NCBI GenBank assembly: GCA_022520065.1
Contig: GCA_022520065.1_3942.1
Origin: a phage
Reading direction: 5' to 3' (one strand)
DNA length: 64,000 nucleotides
A program made the position numbers and the translations under genes. Positions 2,174 through 54,176 of this stretch are shown piece after piece (the first letter of the stretch is position 1; the number at the start of each line of letters is the position of its first letter). The notes under the pieces are model-generated. The model saw only the letters and a list, made by a program, of their open reading frames with translations, was not told where the DNA came from and searched no databases.

Positions 2174-3346
2174 ATGGCAGTAGGTGAAATTCAAATTAGT
2201 GCCTTGCCTCAAGCATCCTTACCAATTGACCTTAGTGATATCTTCCATCTTAAGCAGGGTATTGAGGATAAGAGGTGTACTCTTGAGCAATTACTTGCTC
2301 CACACGCAAGCCTAAGAAATAACCCTCATGGTGTTACTAAAACACAAATTGGTTTAGATAATGTTATTAATGCTCTTCAGTTAGTCGCTGCAAATAACTT
2401 ATCAGATATTGTTAATGTAGCTGAGGCAAGAGCAAATCTACAGATTATGTCTTCAGAAGAGGTTAATAACCTTGTCCAGCAACATATCAAGGACAAGAGT
2501 AACCCACACAATACAACTAAGGCACAGGTTGGTTTAAGTAATGTTCAGAACTGGACAACATCTAATCTGTATAACGAAGATGCAGATAAGTATGCTACAG
2601 CAAGAGCAGTAAATAACTTGTACAAGGCTGTTCAGGCTTCTTATCCAGTAGGTGCTATCCATCTTTCTATGAACTCTGCAAACCCTTCCACATACTTAAT
2701 TTGTGGAGGTACTTGGGAGTTAGTTTCAAAAGGCAGGGCATTGGTTGGCTATGACTCTGATACAAGACCAGCAGGTTCTGTATTTGGCGCTTCAACTGTC
2801 ACTTTGTCAGTTAATAACATGCCTCAGCACTCCCACTCTGTGTCTCTTAGCGGTGGTGGTCACACTCATAATGCAACTGTGTCAATTTCAGCTTTTGATT
2901 ATGGGACTAAGACTACAAACTCTTTTGACTATGGGACAAAAGCTACTAACACAACTGGTAACCATACACACAGTGTGTCAGGTAACACTAGCACCAATGG
3001 TACTCACAACCATGATGTGTATCCTAGAGAAAATGATGGCACTGGTAATGCTGTGGCTGACTCTGATGGTGGTGGTGCAAGAAGGACATCAAGGACTTCT
3101 AGTGATGGTGCGCACTCACACAGCTTTAACGTCACATCTGGTGCATCAGGTGACCACAGCCACACGGTTGGTATTGGTGCTCACAGTCATACAGTTGGTA
3201 TTGGTTCACATACGCATAGTGGCACTGTAACAGTTTCTTCTTCTGAACATACACATAGTGGCAATACAAATAGTGTTGGTGGAGGTCAGGCAGTTAATAT
3301 TGAACAGCCATCCTTCGTACTGTATGTATGGCAGAGAACAGCTTAA
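2174..3346 (+). CDS. tail fibre protein with C-terminal HxH-repeat tip
   Basis: Repeated HSHxVGIG / HTHS motifs and FDYGTK repeats; C-terminal region paralogous to 3393..5747; both end in W-x-RTA. Confidence 0.7.
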   Translation: MAVGEIQISALPQASLPIDLSDIFHLKQGIEDKRCTLEQLLAPHASLRNNPHGVTKTQIGLDNVINALQLVAANNLSDIVNVAEARANLQIMSSEEVNNLVQQHIKDKSNPHNTTKAQVGLSNVQNWTTSNLYNEDADKYATARAVNNLYKAVQASYPVGAIHLSMNSANPSTYLICGGTWELVSKGRALVGYDSDTRPAGSVFGASTVTLSVNNMPQHSHSVSLSGGGHTHNATVSISAFDYGTKTTNSFDYGTKATNTTGNHTHSVSGNTSTNGTHNHDVYPRENDGTGNAVADSDGGGARRTSRTSSDGAHSHSFNVTSGASGDHSHTVGIGAHSHTVGIGSHTHSGTVTVSSSEHTHSGNTNSVGGGQAVNIEQPSFVLYVWQRTA

Positions 3347-15605: not shown

Positions 15606-15665
15606 TTTTACTCCCTCTAAAATCATTAACCTCATACATTACTGCAAAAAATTATAAAAAGCAAG

Positions 15666-15683
15666 TTGACAATGTACTTGACA
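15666..15683 (+). promoter_or_regulatory. conserved tandem TTGACAA element in divergent control region
   Basis: GTTGACAAtGTACTTGACAAGGTG, nearly identical to element at 61883. Confidence 0.35.
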
Positions 15684-15862
15684 AGGTGTTAATCTTTGCG
15701 AAGTGGGTTTTTACTTAAAAGGTTACTTAACAGTTTAACTATACAGATACTTTAAAACTCTTAAAAGATTATTTAATAGCTTTTAAAAAGCTTTAAAGTA
15801 TAACGTATAGAATACGTTAAGATAAAAGATTAAAACTTAATAGTTACTTAAAAGAGGCTTAC

Positions 15863-16285
15863 ATGCAGAAAATGTTTGTTCACCCAGACATAGCTGACTT
15901 TGTTAGAGCTTTGCAGAAGTTGGAAGAACTTGACATTGCTGCTCAACGGGAATATGCTCACCATCACAGGAGAATGGTTGATATACAACATGAAATAGAG
16001 TTGTCTGAAAACTATGAAGATGACTTAAAATGCTCTGTATTTGAGCATATGAAAGATGTTGCTACAGCTAGACGTAAAGCTAAAGACACAGTTGCTTTAC
16101 TAGATTCTCTTAAAAAGAGGTTGCAAAGTGGTACAGACCTGTGTAATCTAGCGTCACTGATTAATGATGTTGAAACTTCTTGGGATAGACATTACTATCC
16201 ACGTTCTGAAAAGACACTTGACTTTTCTTCATCCGAAAACTTAAAATGTTCTAGAAAGAAACTTAACCAACTGAGAGAGAAATAA
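15863..16285 (+). CDS. hypothetical early protein
   Basis: 140-aa ORF, first gene of rightward operon. Confidence 0.5.
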   Translation: MQKMFVHPDIADFVRALQKLEELDIAAQREYAHHHRRMVDIQHEIELSENYEDDLKCSVFEHMKDVATARRKAKDTVALLDSLKKRLQSGTDLCNLASLINDVETSWDRHYYPRSEKTLDFSSSENLKCSRKKLNQLREK

Positions 16286-41366: not shown

Positions 41367-41388
41367 GGCTGCTCCGGCGGCCTTTTTT
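41367..41388 (+). terminator. intrinsic terminator
   Basis: GGCTGC-tccg-GCGGCC followed by TTTTTT. Confidence 0.6.
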
Positions 41389-41449
41389 ATTTGTATTTTG
41401 TGCAGAGTGCTGTATAATTGTTGTCACGATAAACTAAACAGGAGAACCA

Positions 41450-44720: not shown

Positions 44721-45500
44721 ATGGGTATTGTAAAAGTTGTAAAAGGTAACTTACTGGCTGCCTTCAAAAACACAGATATTGAGTTAATTGCTCATGGTTG
44801 CAACTGTCGTAACCTCATGGGTGCTGGAATCGCTCAAAAAATTGCTAAGATTTTCCCAAAAGCTGAAGAAGCTGACCGGAAATTCCATAAAAAGTTTGGC
44901 TACAGTGCTCATGATATCGGATACCAGATGGTTGGTGAGGTGTCACATGCTCGAACGGAGTATGGTTACATTTTTAACCTATATACACAGTTGGATGTTG
45001 GGAAGTGTGCATCATACCGATACTTAGTGGAGTCACTAGAAAAACTCCGTAAATTTTGCTGGCTGCACAACATTCGTAAGATTGGTTTACCCATGATTGG
45101 GGCAGGTATAGGCGGTTTAGATGCACAAGCTGTGAAAAGCCTCATTAATAGTGTTATGTATAACGTTGATGTGTACCTCTACGTCTATGATGAAGCAATG
45201 GCAAGTGTAGTTACCCCTAAGTATGCTACCTCAGCACCACAATTCTATGATGGTGTCGTGCTAAGTGACGGGAAGACTAATCAAGTTACCCTCTATCAGC
45301 TTGTTGATGGCAAGGTTGAGGTTAGTTACCCTCTGGTTAGTGAGATGGGTATGTGTAACAGTGAAATGTTCCCAGTTGACCCGTTTGGAAGATATGAAGG
45401 GGTGTTCTTTGATAACTACCCAGCAGCATACATCTACACAACAAATCAGGATGAAGTTCACTACTTGCTGTATTCTAAAAAGTTCAAATTCATAAGCTGA
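44721..45500 (+). CDS. macro-domain (ADP-ribose-binding/processing) protein with C-terminal extension
   Basis: N-terminal DIELIAHGCNCRNLMGAGIAQKI and later IGLPMIGAGIGGLD match macro-domain glycine-rich motifs. Confidence 0.55.
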   Translation: MGIVKVVKGNLLAAFKNTDIELIAHGCNCRNLMGAGIAQKIAKIFPKAEEADRKFHKKFGYSAHDIGYQMVGEVSHARTEYGYIFNLYTQLDVGKCASYRYLVESLEKLRKFCWLHNIRKIGLPMIGAGIGGLDAQAVKSLINSVMYNVDVYLYVYDEAMASVVTPKYATSAPQFYDGVVLSDGKTNQVTLYQLVDGKVEVSYPLVSEMGMCNSEMFPVDPFGRYEGVFFDNYPAAYIYTTNQDEVHYLLYSKKFKFIS

Positions 45501-45575
45501 TTAGCACTTCATAGTATCTACAAATCATCTAAGAAGGCTGCCTAACCCATTGAAAAATTTAAGGTAAGGCGGCCT

Positions 45576-45832
45576 TTTTCATTTTCAATTTGTGCAGGTA
45601 TCTGTAGGGGTCTGTACAGATATCCCAAAAAATCTCATCGCCGGATAGAAAAATCATTTTCAAAACGTGCAGACCCCGCTCAGGTCGGGCAAGAAAAATC
45701 ATTTTAGAATTGTGCAGGTAGGTTTTTATAGAGAGCCAGACCAACCCCTCTCCCCCTCTTACTCCCCCTCTCCCTAAAAGTCAAGAGAAAAATTTGTAGC
45801 GGATTGAAAAATAATTCTTGATTTGTGTTCTG
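45576..45832. repeat. four copies of A/T-rich box followed by TGTGCAGG, plus 30-nt polypyrimidine tract
   Basis: Copies near 45576, 45648, 45693, 45805; C/T tract 45745-45774 (G4-type motif on - strand). Confidence 0.5.
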
Positions 45833-45896
45833 TTTTGTGGTAGTCGTGTGCGCCCGTTTCATTACAGTTTTGCCAAAAATATTTTTAAAATTTTTC

Positions 45897-45925
45897 TTGA
45901 CTCTTTGAGTGTGGTTATCTAATAT
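45897..45925 (+). promoter_or_regulatory. type-A cassette promoter TTGACT-N17-TAATAT
   Basis: Followed by GC hairpin 45936-45956 and conserved leader ending GGAGATTCAAAAATG. Confidence 0.5.
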
Positions 45926-45988
45926 TTGCATCAACGGGGAGGGAATGACCTTCCCCACTAAATAAAGTCCTAAACTGGAGATTCAAAA

Positions 45989-46369
45989 ATGGCATATCGT
46001 GCACCTAAATTCATCAACAAAGACAACTTTCGCAACGCACTGGAGAAGTCACTTGATGAAAATTTTAAAGGTAACATTATCGTTGTTCACGCATTCAATT
46101 TTAAGTATGATATCAACGGGAATAAAATCAACCATTACACGGCAACCATGATAGATGGTACACTTTCAAGTGAAAAAGCCGTACTAAATGCACTTGCAGG
46201 ACGTGGAAAAAACCTGATAAGATGTGATAAGAGACGTTATCAGGGCGGCGCATATGGTTATGATGATGCTATTTATCATCTTGAAAATATGGGCTATCAA
46301 GTAGAAAAAGCTGGAGCATCACAAATCATCGGTAGTGATGGTTATGTAACTATCTTCAAAATTAACTAA
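45989..46369 (+). CDS. hypothetical small protein (array gene 1)
   Basis: ORF behind type-A cassette. Confidence 0.5.
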   Translation: MAYRAPKFINKDNFRNALEKSLDENFKGNIIVVHAFNFKYDINGNKINHYTATMIDGTLSSEKAVLNALAGRGKNLIRCDKRRYQGGAYGYDDAIYHLENMGYQVEKAGASQIIGSDGYVTIFKIN

Positions 46370-46458
46370 TAAAGTACTTTACAAGGGGCTTATAGTTCGA
46401 TAAAGTAAGCCCCAGATAAAGAGCTTTACTACTCAATCCTAAATTGGAGAACTAAAAA

Positions 46459-46716: not shown

Positions 46717-46804
46717 TAAAGTACTTTACAGGGGGCTTAAAAGCTGATACCTTAAGCCCCAGATAAAGAGCTTTACCAATCAATCCTAAACTGGAGATTC
46801 AAAA

Positions 46805-50769: not shown

Positions 50770-51300
50770 ATGAACAAATTTCAAGCTATCAACTTCATTC
50801 GTTCAAATGCTGTAATGTCTAAGCCTGTAAAAGATACATACGAATTCCGTTGTAATGGGGTACATTTCGCAACAATCACCAAATCAGAAAACGGGGCTTA
50901 TTACGTTCATCGTCGTAATGTTTCAACCGTTGTAGTCTCTCACTTTATGCAAGCTGTAGCGGAATTATTACCGTTATTCTTAGAGATTTACTTAGATGAG
51001 TGTAAAAACGTTCACAACCACGTTAAAAGCCTTTTAAACGGTTATAAAATGGCTTATGAACGCTCTATCAAGTCCTTAAACAAGTTTTACAATGCACCTG
51101 CAAATACTGTTTCAATGGCTTATGATGTAAACGGTGAGTTAGTTAGTCTCTTTGAAGTGGAAGAAATTAAGCTGTATAATTTACGTCCTAGTGGTTACTC
51201 TAAGACTCTTGGTGAAGGTTTATCCTTTAATATCAAGAACTTAGAAAAAACTTTAAAAGACATTGAAAAAGATATTGACGAGACAATCAAAAGTCTGTAA
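50770..51300 (+). CDS. hypothetical protein (array gene 12)
   Basis: ORF behind type-A cassette. Confidence 0.5.
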   Translation: MNKFQAINFIRSNAVMSKPVKDTYEFRCNGVHFATITKSENGAYYVHRRNVSTVVVSHFMQAVAELLPLFLEIYLDECKNVHNHVKSLLNGYKMAYERSIKSLNKFYNAPANTVSMAYDVNGELVSLFEVEEIKLYNLRPSGYSKTLGEGLSFNIKNLEKTLKDIEKDIDETIKSL

Positions 51301-51303
51301 ATT
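51275..51303 (+). promoter_or_regulatory. type-A cassette promoter TTGACG-N17-TAAATT
   Basis: Lies within 3' end of gene 12; followed by hairpin 51314-51334. Confidence 0.45.
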
Positions 51304-51366
51304 GTCAATCAACGGGGAGGGAATGACCTTCCCCACTAAATAAAGTCCTAAACTGGAGTTATCAAG

Positions 51367-51630
51367 ATGGAAAACGTAGAATTAACCACACTTTTACAAA
51401 TTGCAACCGACAAAGAGAACGTAGCTTTATTTCACCGCATCGAAAGTGATTTGTTCAATGGTGAAATCATCAAAGAGTCTTACGAGGTTGTTGGATTCAA
51501 AGATGGTAAAACATTTGGATTCTTTGACCTCGAAAAAGGCAACGCTGTTACAAAATATGATGTTTTATCTTGTGAGATTCTTACAAGATACAACGAAAAA
51601 AGGCTTGCAACATACGCCAATATGCAGTAA
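51367..51630 (+). CDS. hypothetical small protein (array gene 13)
   Basis: ORF behind type-A cassette. Confidence 0.5.
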   Translation: MENVELTTLLQIATDKENVALFHRIESDLFNGEIIKESYEVVGFKDGKTFGFFDLEKGNAVTKYDVLSCEILTRYNEKRLATYANMQ

Positions 51631-51633
51631 ATT
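51605..51633 (+). promoter_or_regulatory. type-A cassette promoter TTGCAA-N17-TAAATT
   Basis: Followed by hairpin 51644-51661. Confidence 0.4.
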
Positions 51634-51696
51634 ACTAATCAACGGGAGGCGATAACCTCCCCACTAAATAAAACCCTTAAACTAGGAGATTCAAAA

Positions 51697-51945
51697 ATGG
51701 CAACTATCCGCGCTACTGTTAACGAGTTCGGTTTTTCCTCTCTGGATGTTAAATTTGACATTGCAGGCACTGATAACGCCTTTGAAATGGTGAAAGGTCT
51801 TATCAGTCAGACCATCAAAGATTATAATCCTTCGGATGAGTTCTGGGAGGAAACAAAACAAGAAGTTCTCAAGGATGGTTATACTTATCACTATTGGGGA
51901 GAAAAAATCGTCTCCCTGTACTACAACAAACAAGATTATAACTAA
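51697..51945 (+). CDS. hypothetical small protein (array gene 14)
   Basis: ORF behind type-A cassette. Confidence 0.5.
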   Translation: MATIRATVNEFGFSSLDVKFDIAGTDNAFEMVKGLISQTIKDYNPSDEFWEETKQEVLKDGYTYHYWGEKIVSLYYNKQDYN

Positions 51946-51983
51946 TCGACGCAGCGGGGCTAAATAGCCCCAGATACCCTAAC

Positions 51984-52008
51984 AGCCCCTTTAAATAGGG
52001 GCTTTTTT
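51984..52008 (+). terminator. strong intrinsic terminator closing the array
   Basis: AGCCCCT-ttaaat-AGGGGCT followed by TTTTTT; preceded by type-B-like hairpin 51956-51971. Confidence 0.65.
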
Positions 52009-52010
52009 AC

Positions 52011-53590
52011 GTCTATCCAATCCTTATACAATCCCTTTCCCTCACCTTTCCAGAATCTATCCACTGATTCGATAGAACCTATCTCATACCTTAAAAAGCA
52101 ATAACTCTATAGTCTACTCTGTAACCTCTTATCAAATCAACTTAAATAAAAGCCAATAACCCCAGAAAGGGGATGGCCCATTTAAACGCTCTATAAAGCT
52201 CTATAACAGCCTTATCAAACTGACTTAAGGGATTGCATTAACTCACCCTAAAAAGCCCTTTATAAAGCTTCCTAGAGCCTTAAAAGAATCTTATAAGGGT
52301 GTAAGCTTTATCATCTCGTTAGTATTCTTGTGAACTATTAAAAAGGGCTTGGTAGTGTCTTAAAAGTATGTTATAGGGGCTATAAAGTTACTTCAAAGTT
52401 ACGTAAAAGAGGCTATAAAGTTACGTAAATGCTAGCCCCCTTAACATTTTCTTAACAATTTCTTAACAATCCCTACATAGTTATGCTTTTAAGGCACTTG
52501 TTAGCAACTTGTTAGCCCCTTGTTAAATCTCTGTTAAGACCACGTAAAAGCCTTGTAAGAGTCTTTGACATAGCCTTAAAAGCTTCTGTAAAGCTCTATA
52601 AAGAGGTGTCTGTACAGTTGGGGGATAGATACTAGGAAGAGACTTAAAAGAGCTTATAAAGAGCTATAGAGAGCTTTTAAAAGGTATGTTTAAGGAATCA
52701 CTAAGAGGGGAAAGGGAACGATAAGAAAGAGATAGTGACCATGTTAATAGCTTGTTAAAAAGATTAAACACTTGTTAGAAACTTGTTAATTATCTTAACA
52801 AAATAACTCTTAAAAATCAACTTGTTAGCTCTTGTTAGTCATCTGTTAAGGCTCTGTAAAGCCTATGTATCAACTGTTAAGAAACTGTTACACCATTGTT
52901 AGTTCTGTTAAGAAACTGTTAAGACCTTTGAAGAGTTGTTAAGAGCTTGAGAGAGTTGTTAAGAAATTGTTAAGGATATTTTAAAATTTTGCAAAGTACT
53001 TGTAAGGGAGCTGTTAAGGGCTACCAAGCAGATATACATCTTCTACAGATATTTTTGAGTTCCTTCAAAGACCCTAAAAAATGACTTGACAGTCCTATTT
53101 TATAAAAATTTTAAGATTCTGAATAATTACCTATACAGTCTTTTAAAAATACAGGTAGAAACAGGCTTATAAGATACCTTGTTAGTACCGTGTTAGACCT
53201 TGTGAGATAAGGTCTGTAAAGATATTCCTGTTAAGTTTGTTAAAACAGTCTATATAGAGGCTTAGTAGTACCTAGTGAACACCTATAGAGAGTGTCATAG
53301 CTAACCTAGAGATTAAGAGGTGTATAGGAGCTTCTAAGAGGGTATAGAGAGATGGTTAAGATGATTGTATAGGTTGTTTAGAAGGCTTGTTAGAAGAGTG
53401 TTTAGATGGCTATTTAGAAGGGCTATACAGAGGGCTATTAAGACCACTAGATAGTTACTAAGATACTATATAGTACTATATAACTATATATAGAGAGTAA
53501 GATTAAGAAGGTTGTTAAGAAGGGTAGATATTTTGTTCACATATAATGGTGACCCAGAGGTTGGGACAACCGATAAAATTTTATAAAAAT
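52011..53590. repeat. ORF-free island saturated with short degenerate direct repeats (YTGTTARR and related words)
   Basis: No ORF of 60 aa or more on either strand; dense block 52740-52990; tandem 11-mer 52449-52470; TATATA block 53461-53500. Confidence 0.7.
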
Positions 53591-53591
53591 T

Positions 53592-53615
53592 AAAAAGCCC
53601 CCAATTAAGGAGGCT
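53592..53615 (-). terminator. intrinsic terminator for leftward operon
   Basis: On - strand AGCCTCC-ttaatt-GGGGGCT followed by TTTTT; same hairpin design as 17118. Confidence 0.55.
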
Positions 53616-53627
53616 CTTAAGATATTT

Positions 53628-54176
53628 TTAAATCAGTGTTTCCAGAACTGTTTTTAGTGATGACTTGGTTGTCTGATAAAAATGAGTAAAGCCGTTGTTG
53701 TTATCAAATACCTGCATCATGATATCATCTCCCTTGATTGGGTACACTCGGATATCATAGTGAAAACCATTAAAGACACAAGAGCCATTACAGAATGCAC
53801 TAAAGTCATCCACTGAGATATACTCTTCATGTCCTGTGATTTTTATACAGATACCTTTACTCGGTCTCTTAGGATTAATATCTTCCATCACAGACATATT
53901 CTGTCCACCAAGAGATACCATAGTGACCACTTTACGGTTCTTCTGTCTAAAGTACATCTTAACTTTCTGTAAAGTGTCTTCATAGAACGGATAAGACTTC
54001 TCTACAAAGATTCCTTCAAGTGGCTCTTTACCATTTTCAACTTCTCTGTTATGCCGTACTGCAAAGATAATTTGTTCGAACCAGTCAAGATTTTCTTCGG
54101 AGAGTGCTTCCCGAACATCACTCCAATCAAGGACTAGGTAGTTACCTTCAACTTCTTTTAAGTTATCTTTTTCCAT
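53628..54176 (-). CDS. hypothetical protein
   Basis: Track start 54221 is TTG; first ATG at 54176. Confidence 0.45.
   Translation of the reverse strand: MEKDNLKEVEGNYLVLDWSDVREALSEENLDWFEQIIFAVRHNREVENGKEPLEGIFVEKSYPFYEDTLQKVKMYFRQKNRKVVTMVSLGGQNMSVMEDINPKRPSKGICIKITGHEEYISVDDFSAFCNGSCVFNGFHYDIRVYPIKGDDIMMQVFDNNNGFTHFYQTTKSSLKTVLETLI

Follow-up and report, generated by a model that had tools for sequence, protein, structure and literature searches.

What is the function of the long non-coding gap that separates genes 13 and 14 in the Felix O1-like phages (Ounavirinae)? The question is raised here by a 64,000-nt stretch of phage DNA (contig GCA_022520065.1_3942.1 of GenBank assembly GCA_022520065.1), which is called the window throughout, with positions counted from its first letter. 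The window comes from a Felix O1-like myovirus of the genus Felixounavirus and is nearly identical to Salmonella phage BPS17L1. Its gap of 488 bp (45501–45988) lies between a macro-domain gene on the left (44721–45500, Pfam Macro), the counterpart of Felix O1 gene 13, and gene 14 on the right, and it holds a block of repeated units. The region flagged for this block is 99.8–100% identical to Salmonella phage BPS17L1, and matches to it are found in 256 phage records. Judged from its sequence, the block is a conserved non-coding control region between genes 13 and 14, and most likely it controls transcription at the boundary of two gene blocks. The repeated units are read, with a probability of about 40%, as an operator or insulator-type DNA platform with several sites for a sequence-specific protein, which would govern transcription across this border.

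In the genome paper of Felix O1, terminator t13 is listed for this gap (Table 2 of that paper) and nothing further is said of it; temporal control of transcription is stated to be unknown, and no origin of replication is named (PMC3185647). Reverse transcription polymerase chain reaction (RT-PCR) gave 5 min for open reading frames (ORFs) 13, 16 and 20–22 and 25 min for ORFs 14, 17, 19 and 23, and by these data the genes flanking the block fall in the early or middle classes (PMC3185647, Table 3). A literature search, part of which was loosely phrased, found no mapping of transcription starts or origins for Felix O1-like phages. The block is not described in the literature searched. It is a real and reproducible feature, and an example of a familiar object, the phage intergenic control region.

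A repeat array at a single locus

The original prediction described four copies of an A/T-rich box followed by a common 8-mer. Three of these are canonical and lie on the same strand (Table 1), while the fourth (45806–45832) is degenerate and appears in Table 1 as a degenerate fifth unit. The 8-mer TGTGCAGG is present in only two copies; the middle copy reads CGTGCAGA and the fourth TGTGTTCT. As a motif in its own right the 8-mer is not enriched, with 2 copies found against 1.9 expected, and GTGCAG occurs 34 times against 29.7 expected. It is the composite form that stands out: TCATTT-N7-GTGCA has three exact copies where 0.11 are expected, all on one strand and within 140 bp. When one mismatch is allowed, only one further copy is gained, at 41387, and the remaining 21 kb of the BPS17L1 genome contains none. 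The units form a single-locus array and are not a dispersed motif. The occurrence that had been pointed out near 41403 is correctly described, with TTGTGCAG at 41398–41405, 7 nt upstream of a perfect TATAAT (41413–41418).

Each unit is about 26 bp long and follows the consensus (A5 or T5)-TCATTTT-N6-GTGCA(G), always in the same orientation. Three units are present in the window and four in most relatives; unit 2 of most relatives is missing in the window and in phage phiWec177. A collection of 54 units was assembled from 14 genomes of Felixounavirus, Suspvirus, Mooglevirus and Kolesnikvirus. The elements T-ATTT and GTGCA are invariant in this whole collection, and the DNA between the units varies. 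The number and order of the units are conserved in the four genera. Core-to-core spacing is 73–75, 39–41 and 45 bp in three of the genera and 37, 37 and 39 bp in Kolesnikvirus, whose core has the form GTGCAT, and it is constant within each lineage. When Kolesnikvirus is compared with the other genera, the unit array is the only part of the gap that BLAST recognises. The array thus consists of several asymmetric sites with cores better conserved than the intervening DNA, as a multi-site array should.

The five bases before TCATTT are T5 in 28 of the 54 units and A-rich in the other 26. Such an exchange is neutral for the shape of the DNA groove and would not be neutral for a folded RNA or for an RNA read by its sequence, so the function of the units is placed on the DNA, and groove-shape read-out is favoured over sequence-specific recognition of RNA. 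For the same reason a folded RNA unit of the ToxI type is incompatible with the array. Type III ToxI and the pseudo-ToxI of phage PhiTE resemble the array in being tandem non-coding repeats with a period of 36–45 nt, in the latter case in a phage genome, and the ToxI sequence contains GTGCAG. Unlike ToxI, however, the units here have a terminator upstream of them and neither a toxin gene nor a toxin-like neighbour, no ToxI-type match was found in Rfam even at E ≤ 10, and tandem copies were not found in enterobacterial genomes.

The distribution of the units outside the aligned phages was also surveyed. In the IMG/VR database, two-copy matches occur only in contigs of 51–91 kb, mostly of Ounavirinae genome size. 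When 185,579 species genomes were scanned for pairs of adjacent units, six loci came up; of these, three were inspected and proved to be unrelated tandem repeats or chromosomal DNA. An origin of the units as host-derived or antitoxin-mimic repeats, or in other groups of phages, was rejected, as only single-copy matches or unrelated tandem repeats were found outside Ounavirinae in the collections searched.

Two short palindromes had been reported within the block, and both exist (Table 1). Neither is kept in the aligned relatives, and both are therefore probably incidental. The window has the first in full and phiWec177 in part; in the other allele this place, between units 1 and 2, is taken by direct repeats CTRTAGAGAAA. 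At the position of the second, phages AYO145A, phiWec177, LF110P4 and ESCO50 have GAGAAAAATCAGGTCGGG instead.

Table 1. Coordinates of the features in the gap and of the one other unit-like copy
Feature	Position	Strand	Description
Unit-like copy, the only other one in the genome	41367–41418	+	t2 hairpin, T-tract, TTATTTGTATTTTGTGCAG (1 mismatch to core), TATAAT
Intrinsic terminator of the macro-gene transcription unit (Felix O1 t13)	45531–45585	+	Long hairpin 45531–45579, then T-tract TTTTTCATTTT
Unit 1	45575–45600	+	TTTTTCATTTTCAATTTGTGCAGGTA; A/T box is the T-tract of the terminator; T-tract plus CAATTTGTGCAGGTA
Palindrome	45600–45621		ATCTGTA-n8-TACAGAT
Second window unit (unit 3 of relatives)	45648–45673	+	GAAAAATCATTTTCAAAACGTGCAGA
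Palindrome	45675–45689		CCCG-n7-CGGG
Third window unit (unit 4 of relatives)	45693–45723	+	GAAAAATCATTTTAGAATTGTGCAGGTAGGT
Type A cassette, replaceable	45724–45775		TATAGAGAG (45727–45735) and polypyrimidine mirror repeat (45745–45775)
Candidate leftward promoter P(-)	45756–45784	-	-35 TTGACT (45784–45779), 17-nt spacer, -10 TAAGAG (45761–45756)
Most conserved block	45776–45860	+	Degenerate fifth unit GAAAAATAATTCTTGATTTGTGTTCTG (45806–45832); promoter-like layout TTGATT-N17-TAGTCG
Early promoter of gene 14	45874–45925	+	UP-like A/T tract 45874–45896, TTGACT 45897–45902, TAATAT 45920–45925, 17-nt spacer
5' leader of gene 14	45936–45988	+	Hairpin GGGGAGGGAATGACCTTCCCC (45936–45956), Shine-Dalgarno GGAG (45977–45980), ATG at 45989

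Terminator, promoters and an exchangeable cassette

Three features of the block were not part of the original prediction, namely that the first A/T box doubles as a terminator T-tract, that a leftward promoter lies over the polypyrimidine tract and that a mosaic breakpoint falls at the block. The t13 hairpin is strong in the RNA fold, and the end of the macro gene thus carries a G+C-rich hairpin with a T-run directly behind it, the composition of an intrinsic terminator. The hairpin is kept in eight relatives, in which both bases of two pairs and one base of several others have changed. A terminator scan picks up t13 in AYO145A and SeKF_13; the window copy, with its loop of about 24 nt, is over the limit of the scan. 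The RNA fold has a z-score of -3.0 for the + strand and -0.1 for the minus strand, and the + strand value probably comes mainly from the terminator hairpin, which is the only strong helix in the fold.

The T-tract CCTTTTT(C/T)ATTT stands at the end of four terminators in the window, against 0.29 expected. Since the T-tract of t13 forms part of unit 1, the array has the appearance of a terminator tail duplicated in tandem. Between the two alleles of the macro gene, unit 1 and the descending arm of the t13 hairpin scarcely differ, and unit 1 is conserved although the macro gene is only about 60% (DNA) and about 40% (protein) identical to that of most relatives. A similar arrangement is seen behind rIIB, where the T-tract of terminator t2, listed in Table 2 of the Felix O1 paper (PMC3185647), runs via the unit-like TTATTTGTATTTTGTGCAG into a perfect TATAAT. 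The tail of this terminator is thus also the upstream half of the following promoter.

The mosaic breakpoint lies at 45654, exactly at a unit (the start of the second window unit). Rightwards from this position about 50 records match at 95% identity or more (95–98%), and the part to the left is a rare allele. The macro protein of the window is 36–43% identical to those of the diverged Ounavirinae sampled, and its allele is found in fewer than 15 records; at the DNA level the macro gene is about 60% identical to its relatives. The right half of the gap is 92–100% identical within the genus, save where the cassette or the promoter module has been exchanged. Combinations of modules vary from phage to phage, and phiWec177, for example, carries the macro allele of the window together with the other type of cassette.

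This cassette occupies about 56 bp rich in G- or C-runs between the array and the promoters, and it exists in two types, A and B, of equal length. The window has type A, whose main component was originally described as a pure C/T tract. The tract is indeed present at 45745–45775, though it is interrupted by one A (45761), and it is a perfect mirror repeat of 13 + 13 nt with a 3-nt spacer, CCCTCTCCCCCTC-TTA-CTCCCCCTCTCCC. On the minus strand it has the predicted canonical G-quadruplex (G4) motif, GGGAGAGGGGGAGTAAGAGGGGGAGAGGGG (45745–45774), with four runs of at least three G and loops of 1–7 nt. This is the only canonical G3+N1-7 motif in the window, where first-order Markov simulations give 0.02. 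In the alignment of the gap, which covers 12 genomes, 7 of them Felixounavirus, the motif appears not to be a conserved requirement, real as it is: four of the seven Felixounavirus genomes have the other cassette, with the G-runs on the opposite strand. Type A is carried by some felixounaviruses, by Suspvirus and by Mooglevirus, where the left arm is imperfect, and the G4 motif is kept in the type A genomes of these three genera. Kolesnikvirus has the C-rich CGCCCACCCTCCCCTCTACC at this position, with only three runs. In type B the + strand carries GGTAGGTGGGTGCAGGTGGGG, a run of the form (GGTAGGTGGGG)n with one to four copies, and bands of sequence identity suggest that most felixounavirus records carry this type. 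One contig has a single copy of GGTAGGTGGGG and LF110P4 has four (960–1000 of the compared piece), an instability like that of microsatellites.

A cluster of G-runs is thus usual at the position of the tract, judging from the aligned sequences, with neither its strand nor its sequence fixed, and for this reason no strand-specific role of the tract can be general. The tract is one interchangeable version of a spacer between array and promoters and not a conserved functional core. When folded in ViennaRNA with its G-quadruplex option, with RNA as well as DNA parameters, the tract pairs with its flanks in ordinary hairpins in preference to the G4. As a homopurine-homopyrimidine mirror repeat with perfect 13-nt arms, the tract has the makings of H-DNA. 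The mirror symmetry is not conserved, the left arm being broken by an A in Mooglevirus and the repeat being absent in type B and Kolesnikvirus.

The other component of the type A cassette, TATAGAGAG, has seven copies in the window against 1.4 expected. Five of these are on the + strand (45727, 52665, 53284, 53343 and 53489), in just two non-coding regions, the block and the terminal repeat with its right flank. From its sequence pattern, TATAGAGAG may be a second shared binding motif.

Promoters were sought with a sigma-70 scan for -35- and -10-like hexamers separated by 16–18 bp, in which the -10 hexamer had to have A as its second and T as its sixth base. The gene 14 promoter (45897–45925), a strong rightward one that is annotated as a promoter in phage ASO1A, is the sole promoter-like site that the scan finds in 45500–45990. 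P(-) is recognised by its conservation. Its TTGACT behind an A/T tract and the TA of its -10 hexamer are invariant and at fixed spacing in 12 of 12 aligned genomes, with both cassette types, the -10 hexamer reading TAAGAG in type A and TAGCCT in type B. The equivalent in Kolesnikvirus, TTGAC(C/G)-N18-TATACT, scores 10/12 in the scan. In two Kolesnikvirus phages whose gaps are 88% identical, the hexamers are kept and six spacer positions differ, with the length unchanged. Because the hexamers are conserved over the 12 genomes and Kolesnikvirus, the putative leftward promoter is accepted as a feature of the family, and from its hexamers it would be weak in the window. Its predicted start is near 45749, inside the G-run, and the units would be transcribed antisense from it.

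The most conserved part of the gap lies between the cassette and the gene 14 promoter. This 85-bp block (45776–45860) is 76–100% identical to the five relatives, from four genera, that were compared segment by segment, and AAAAGTCAA, AGAAAAAT and AAAAATAATTCTTGA are invariant within it. Its -10-like hexamer is without the final T in all genomes.

Operator array, origin or another role

In the preferred reading, the units would be bound as double-stranded DNA by a sequence-specific protein, expected to be an early or middle product of the phage, which would occupy about 200 bp between the terminator and the divergent promoters. Transcription could thereby be controlled from either side, with effects both on transcripts that run past the terminator and on antisense ones that start leftward at P(-), and the block would serve as an operator or insulator array where two transcription units meet. 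The suggestion in the original prediction that the units are operator sites for a phage regulator is compatible with everything found and is preferred here. A comparable region is the early/late switch region of phi29, in which four sites for protein p4 lie between the divergent promoters A2c/A2b and A3. The two regions share a short non-coding length, divergent promoters and about four sites with A/T tracts, and in the p4 sites groove shape matters as much as base identity. The p4 sites of phi29 are inverted repeats placed between the promoters, whereas the units are direct repeats on one side, downstream of the leftward promoter; the sequences are unrelated, and no p4- or p6-like protein was identified here.

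Several findings weigh against the operator reading. A cognate binding protein is not known, and none of the neighbouring gene products (ten proteins searched against Pfam) has a recognisable DNA-binding domain. With a spacing that varies from genus to genus, and with 37 bp amounting to about 3.5 helical turns, cooperative binding on the same face of the helix is not conserved. One unit is dispensed with in the window and some relatives. P(-) of the window has a poor -10 hexamer, without the final T, that does not pass the scan, and the leftward transcription in need of control may therefore be slight. Finally, the conservation could partly come from repeated recombination at unit sequences and not from binding.

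The main rival to the operator reading is a replication origin activated or primed by transcription, in which P(-) would read through the G-runs and form an R-loop or G4, with the array serving as an unwinding or loading zone or as iterons. We consider this unlikely. Three to four direct repeats in one orientation beside promoters, in a non-coding gap kept in four genera, would suit an origin, as would the position of the G-runs on the non-template strand of the leftward promoter in type A and Kolesnikvirus. The T7 primary origin and the T4 origins oriF and oriG each combine a promoter with an A/T-rich element, and ColE1 and the mitochondrial conserved sequence block (CSB) use G-rich R-loops; with the iteron origins of lambda (ori) and of plasmids, as with those of T7 and T4, the block shares A/T-rich non-coding DNA and repeats of the same orientation near promoters. 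That the genome paper reports no origin for Felix O1 (PMC3185647) also counts in favour of this reading. It is opposed by a spacing of 37–45 bp, unlike the 11/22-bp phasing of iterons, and by the absence of an adjacent initiator gene, of any DnaA box (TTWTNCACA) within one mismatch in 45501–46000 and of a good site for integration host factor (IHF), the two IHF-like sites with one mismatch both lying outside the array. Moreover, the G-runs of type B are on the opposite strand and the -10 hexamer of the window P(-) is weak. Cumulative GC skew has its minimum at about 15.7 kb and its maximum at about 52 kb and does not turn at the block, which is weak evidence since the skew tracks the direction of transcription. 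A termination zone acting at the level of RNA is less probable again. Here the read-through transcript would be unstructured over the units and the C-rich tract would be a Rho utilization (rut) site, so that Rho would act as a back-up that shields the early promoter. The + strand between 45701 and 45818 is indeed 33% C and 10–14% G, nothing prominent follows the terminator hairpin in the + strand fold, and the order of terminator, units and C-rich tract is kept in the type A genomes and Kolesnikvirus. In type B, however, the + strand is G-rich at the tract position, and a rut function leaves the invariant TCATTT and GTGCA cores, the fixed copy number and the free interchange of A5 and T5 unexplained.

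The idea in the original prediction that the units are alternative promoters, recast here as tandem weak promoters for the host RNA polymerase alone or with a phage factor, is not supported in its original form and now appears improbable. An A/T tract like a UP element opens each unit, and the unit-like copy at 41387 lies within a promoter with a perfect TATAAT; isolated units also pass the scan in relatives, unit 1 of AYO145A on the + strand (9/12) and two Kolesnikvirus units (SeKF_13) on the minus strand (9–10/12). These cases are not conserved and fall on different strands in different genera. No unit of the window passes on either strand, the conserved GTGCA sits at the position of the sigma-70 spacer, and the motif does not recur genome-wide or upstream of other genes. 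In SeKF_13 (2441–2506, minus strand) it is the 37-bp period that sets TTGCCA 17 bp from the (T/G)AAAAT of the next unit, a spacing destroyed by the 45-bp period of the other genera. Equally doubtful is the absence of any dedicated function, with the units as relics of terminator-tail duplication kept uniform as homology patches for recombination between diverged gene modules. That unit 1 is a terminator T-tract shared with other terminators, that the breakpoint at 45654 falls exactly at a unit, that module combinations differ between phages (as in phiWec177, with the window macro allele and type B) and that one unit is missing in the window would all follow from it; the retention of copy number, order and spacing in four genera while flanking coding DNA is near saturation, and the invariance of the cores beside variable inter-unit spacers, would not. 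To our knowledge, DNA-entry checkpoints are known only from phage T5 and its relatives, and a checkpoint of this kind is a very remote prospect here. The right-hand 8.5% or so of the genome, with a dozen small early genes, would enter first, pause at the array and resume entry after expression of these genes. The block lies 7.2–7.5 kb from the right virion end (terminal repeat 52435–53025), or about 8.5% of a genome of about 85.5 kb, and the genes between the block and this end are small, without known function, have their own promoters and are transcribed towards the end. In T5 the first-step segment is 7.9% and the non-coding repeats are more conserved than the neighbouring ORFs, so that the segment size, the higher conservation of non-coding than of coding DNA and the place of the repeats, about 8% from the end at the inner border of early genes transcribed endward, all correspond (10.1101/866236). 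The T5 region, by contrast, measures 1.2 kb, lies inside a terminal repeat of about 10 kb and is full of inverted repeats and of paired DnaA boxes, the boxes being a central part of the model in that preprint (10.1101/866236). The block, about 300 bp long, consists of direct repeats without DnaA boxes, and 6.7 kb separate it from a terminal repeat of only about 0.6 kb; two-step transfer has never been reported for Felix O1-like phages. If true, such a checkpoint would be the first in a contractile-tailed phage, and would work without DnaA boxes. Least credible of all is a small protein encoded on the minus strand across the units (MIFLARPERGLHVLKM...). Eight genomes of two genera have an open frame of 51 codons whose ATG lies in unit 4 read as its reverse complement, and minus-strand ORFs are annotated here in several database records. 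Yet differences are spread evenly over the three codon positions (about 5:8:9), the ratio of nonsynonymous to synonymous substitution rates (dN/dS) is 0.3–1 on very few sites, the frame is broken in Mooglevirus, Kolesnikvirus and the allele of the window, no Shine-Dalgarno sequence or other ribosome-binding site precedes it and the annotated positions differ between records. The earlier judgement that the minus-strand ORFs are spurious is thus upheld.

Neighbouring genes, genome ends and significance

To the right of the gap, gene 14 is the first in a run of small + strand genes with no assigned function. The macro protein and nine downstream proteins were searched; no Pfam DNA-binding domain was found among these ten, and the nine downstream proteins matched only PHROGs of unknown function. 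In the gaps between these small early genes (46370–46458, 46717–46804 and on to about 51300), a near-identical cassette precedes each gene, with a promoter-like TTTACA-N17-TAAAGT that contains an internal hairpin (GGGGCTTA...TAAGCCCC), and with a common ribosome-binding region. This array from 46370 onwards resembles the promoter-early stem-loop (PeSL) cassettes of T4-type phages, and the units, like PeSLs, are short and conserved regulatory repeats that border small early genes and lie where mosaic breakpoints fall. PeSLs, however, are dispersed, one per gene, and are complete promoters, whereas the units stand head to tail at one locus and have no -10 hexamer. The Felix O1 paper notes direct repeats of 57 bp, and the cassettes correspond to these.

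Other known elements were not found. No Rfam family reaches its gathering score in the window, where sub-threshold chance matches appear only at E ≤ 10, and the window contains no tRNAs. Nothing relevant to Chi is present in the block, and none of the sites for sigma-54, MotA box, marbox, CRP, Fur, LexA or the RfaH ops element fits when compared by eye. The minimum of the cumulative GC skew (about 15635–15863) coincides with a divergent gap beside the DNA polymerase gene and the maximum is near the terminal repeat at about 52 kb. Since skew follows gene orientation, the minimum is only a weak pointer to an origin.

The direct terminal repeat was placed at 52435–53025 by homology to the annotated 581-bp repeat of phage Pr103Blw, within an ORF-free region (51300–53628). 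It is rich in CTTGTTAAG/CTTGTTAG motifs, often 11 bp apart and in opposite orientation at the two ends. Published end fragments of phage UAB_Phi87 fit its 6568-bp SpeI fragment, about 6 kb from the block (PMC4837284). The record of Escherichia phage Andreotti (MN850610.1) begins exactly where the tract would (homologous to 45742 of the window), and at this record end a 15-nt fold-back copy of upstream sequence is joined at GACC. It could be an artefact of assembly or library preparation from the tract or from GGTCTGG inverted repeats. A genome terminus at the tract, as the Andreotti record end might suggest, was rejected because the terminal repeat maps 6.7 kb away. Similarly, Erwinia phage BoyaciRG1 (OR125561.1) has an exact terminal duplication of 1232 bp centred on the homologous block. 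This was dismissed as a genome end and is probably an untrimmed assembly overlap, as other Kolesnikvirus records end about 7.4 kb downstream.

Felix O1 is the classic typing phage of Salmonella, and its relatives are widely used in biocontrol and in therapy cocktails. Few non-coding sequences found here are as well conserved across four genera of the subfamily as the block. A terminator, a repeat array and divergent promoters come together in it, which makes it a natural starting point in the search for the missing regulator or origin of these phages. It supplies concrete sequences for pull-downs, reporter fusions and deletions, and the interchangeable G-run cassettes offer a natural test of the relevance of quadruplex- or triplex-prone DNA in a phage.

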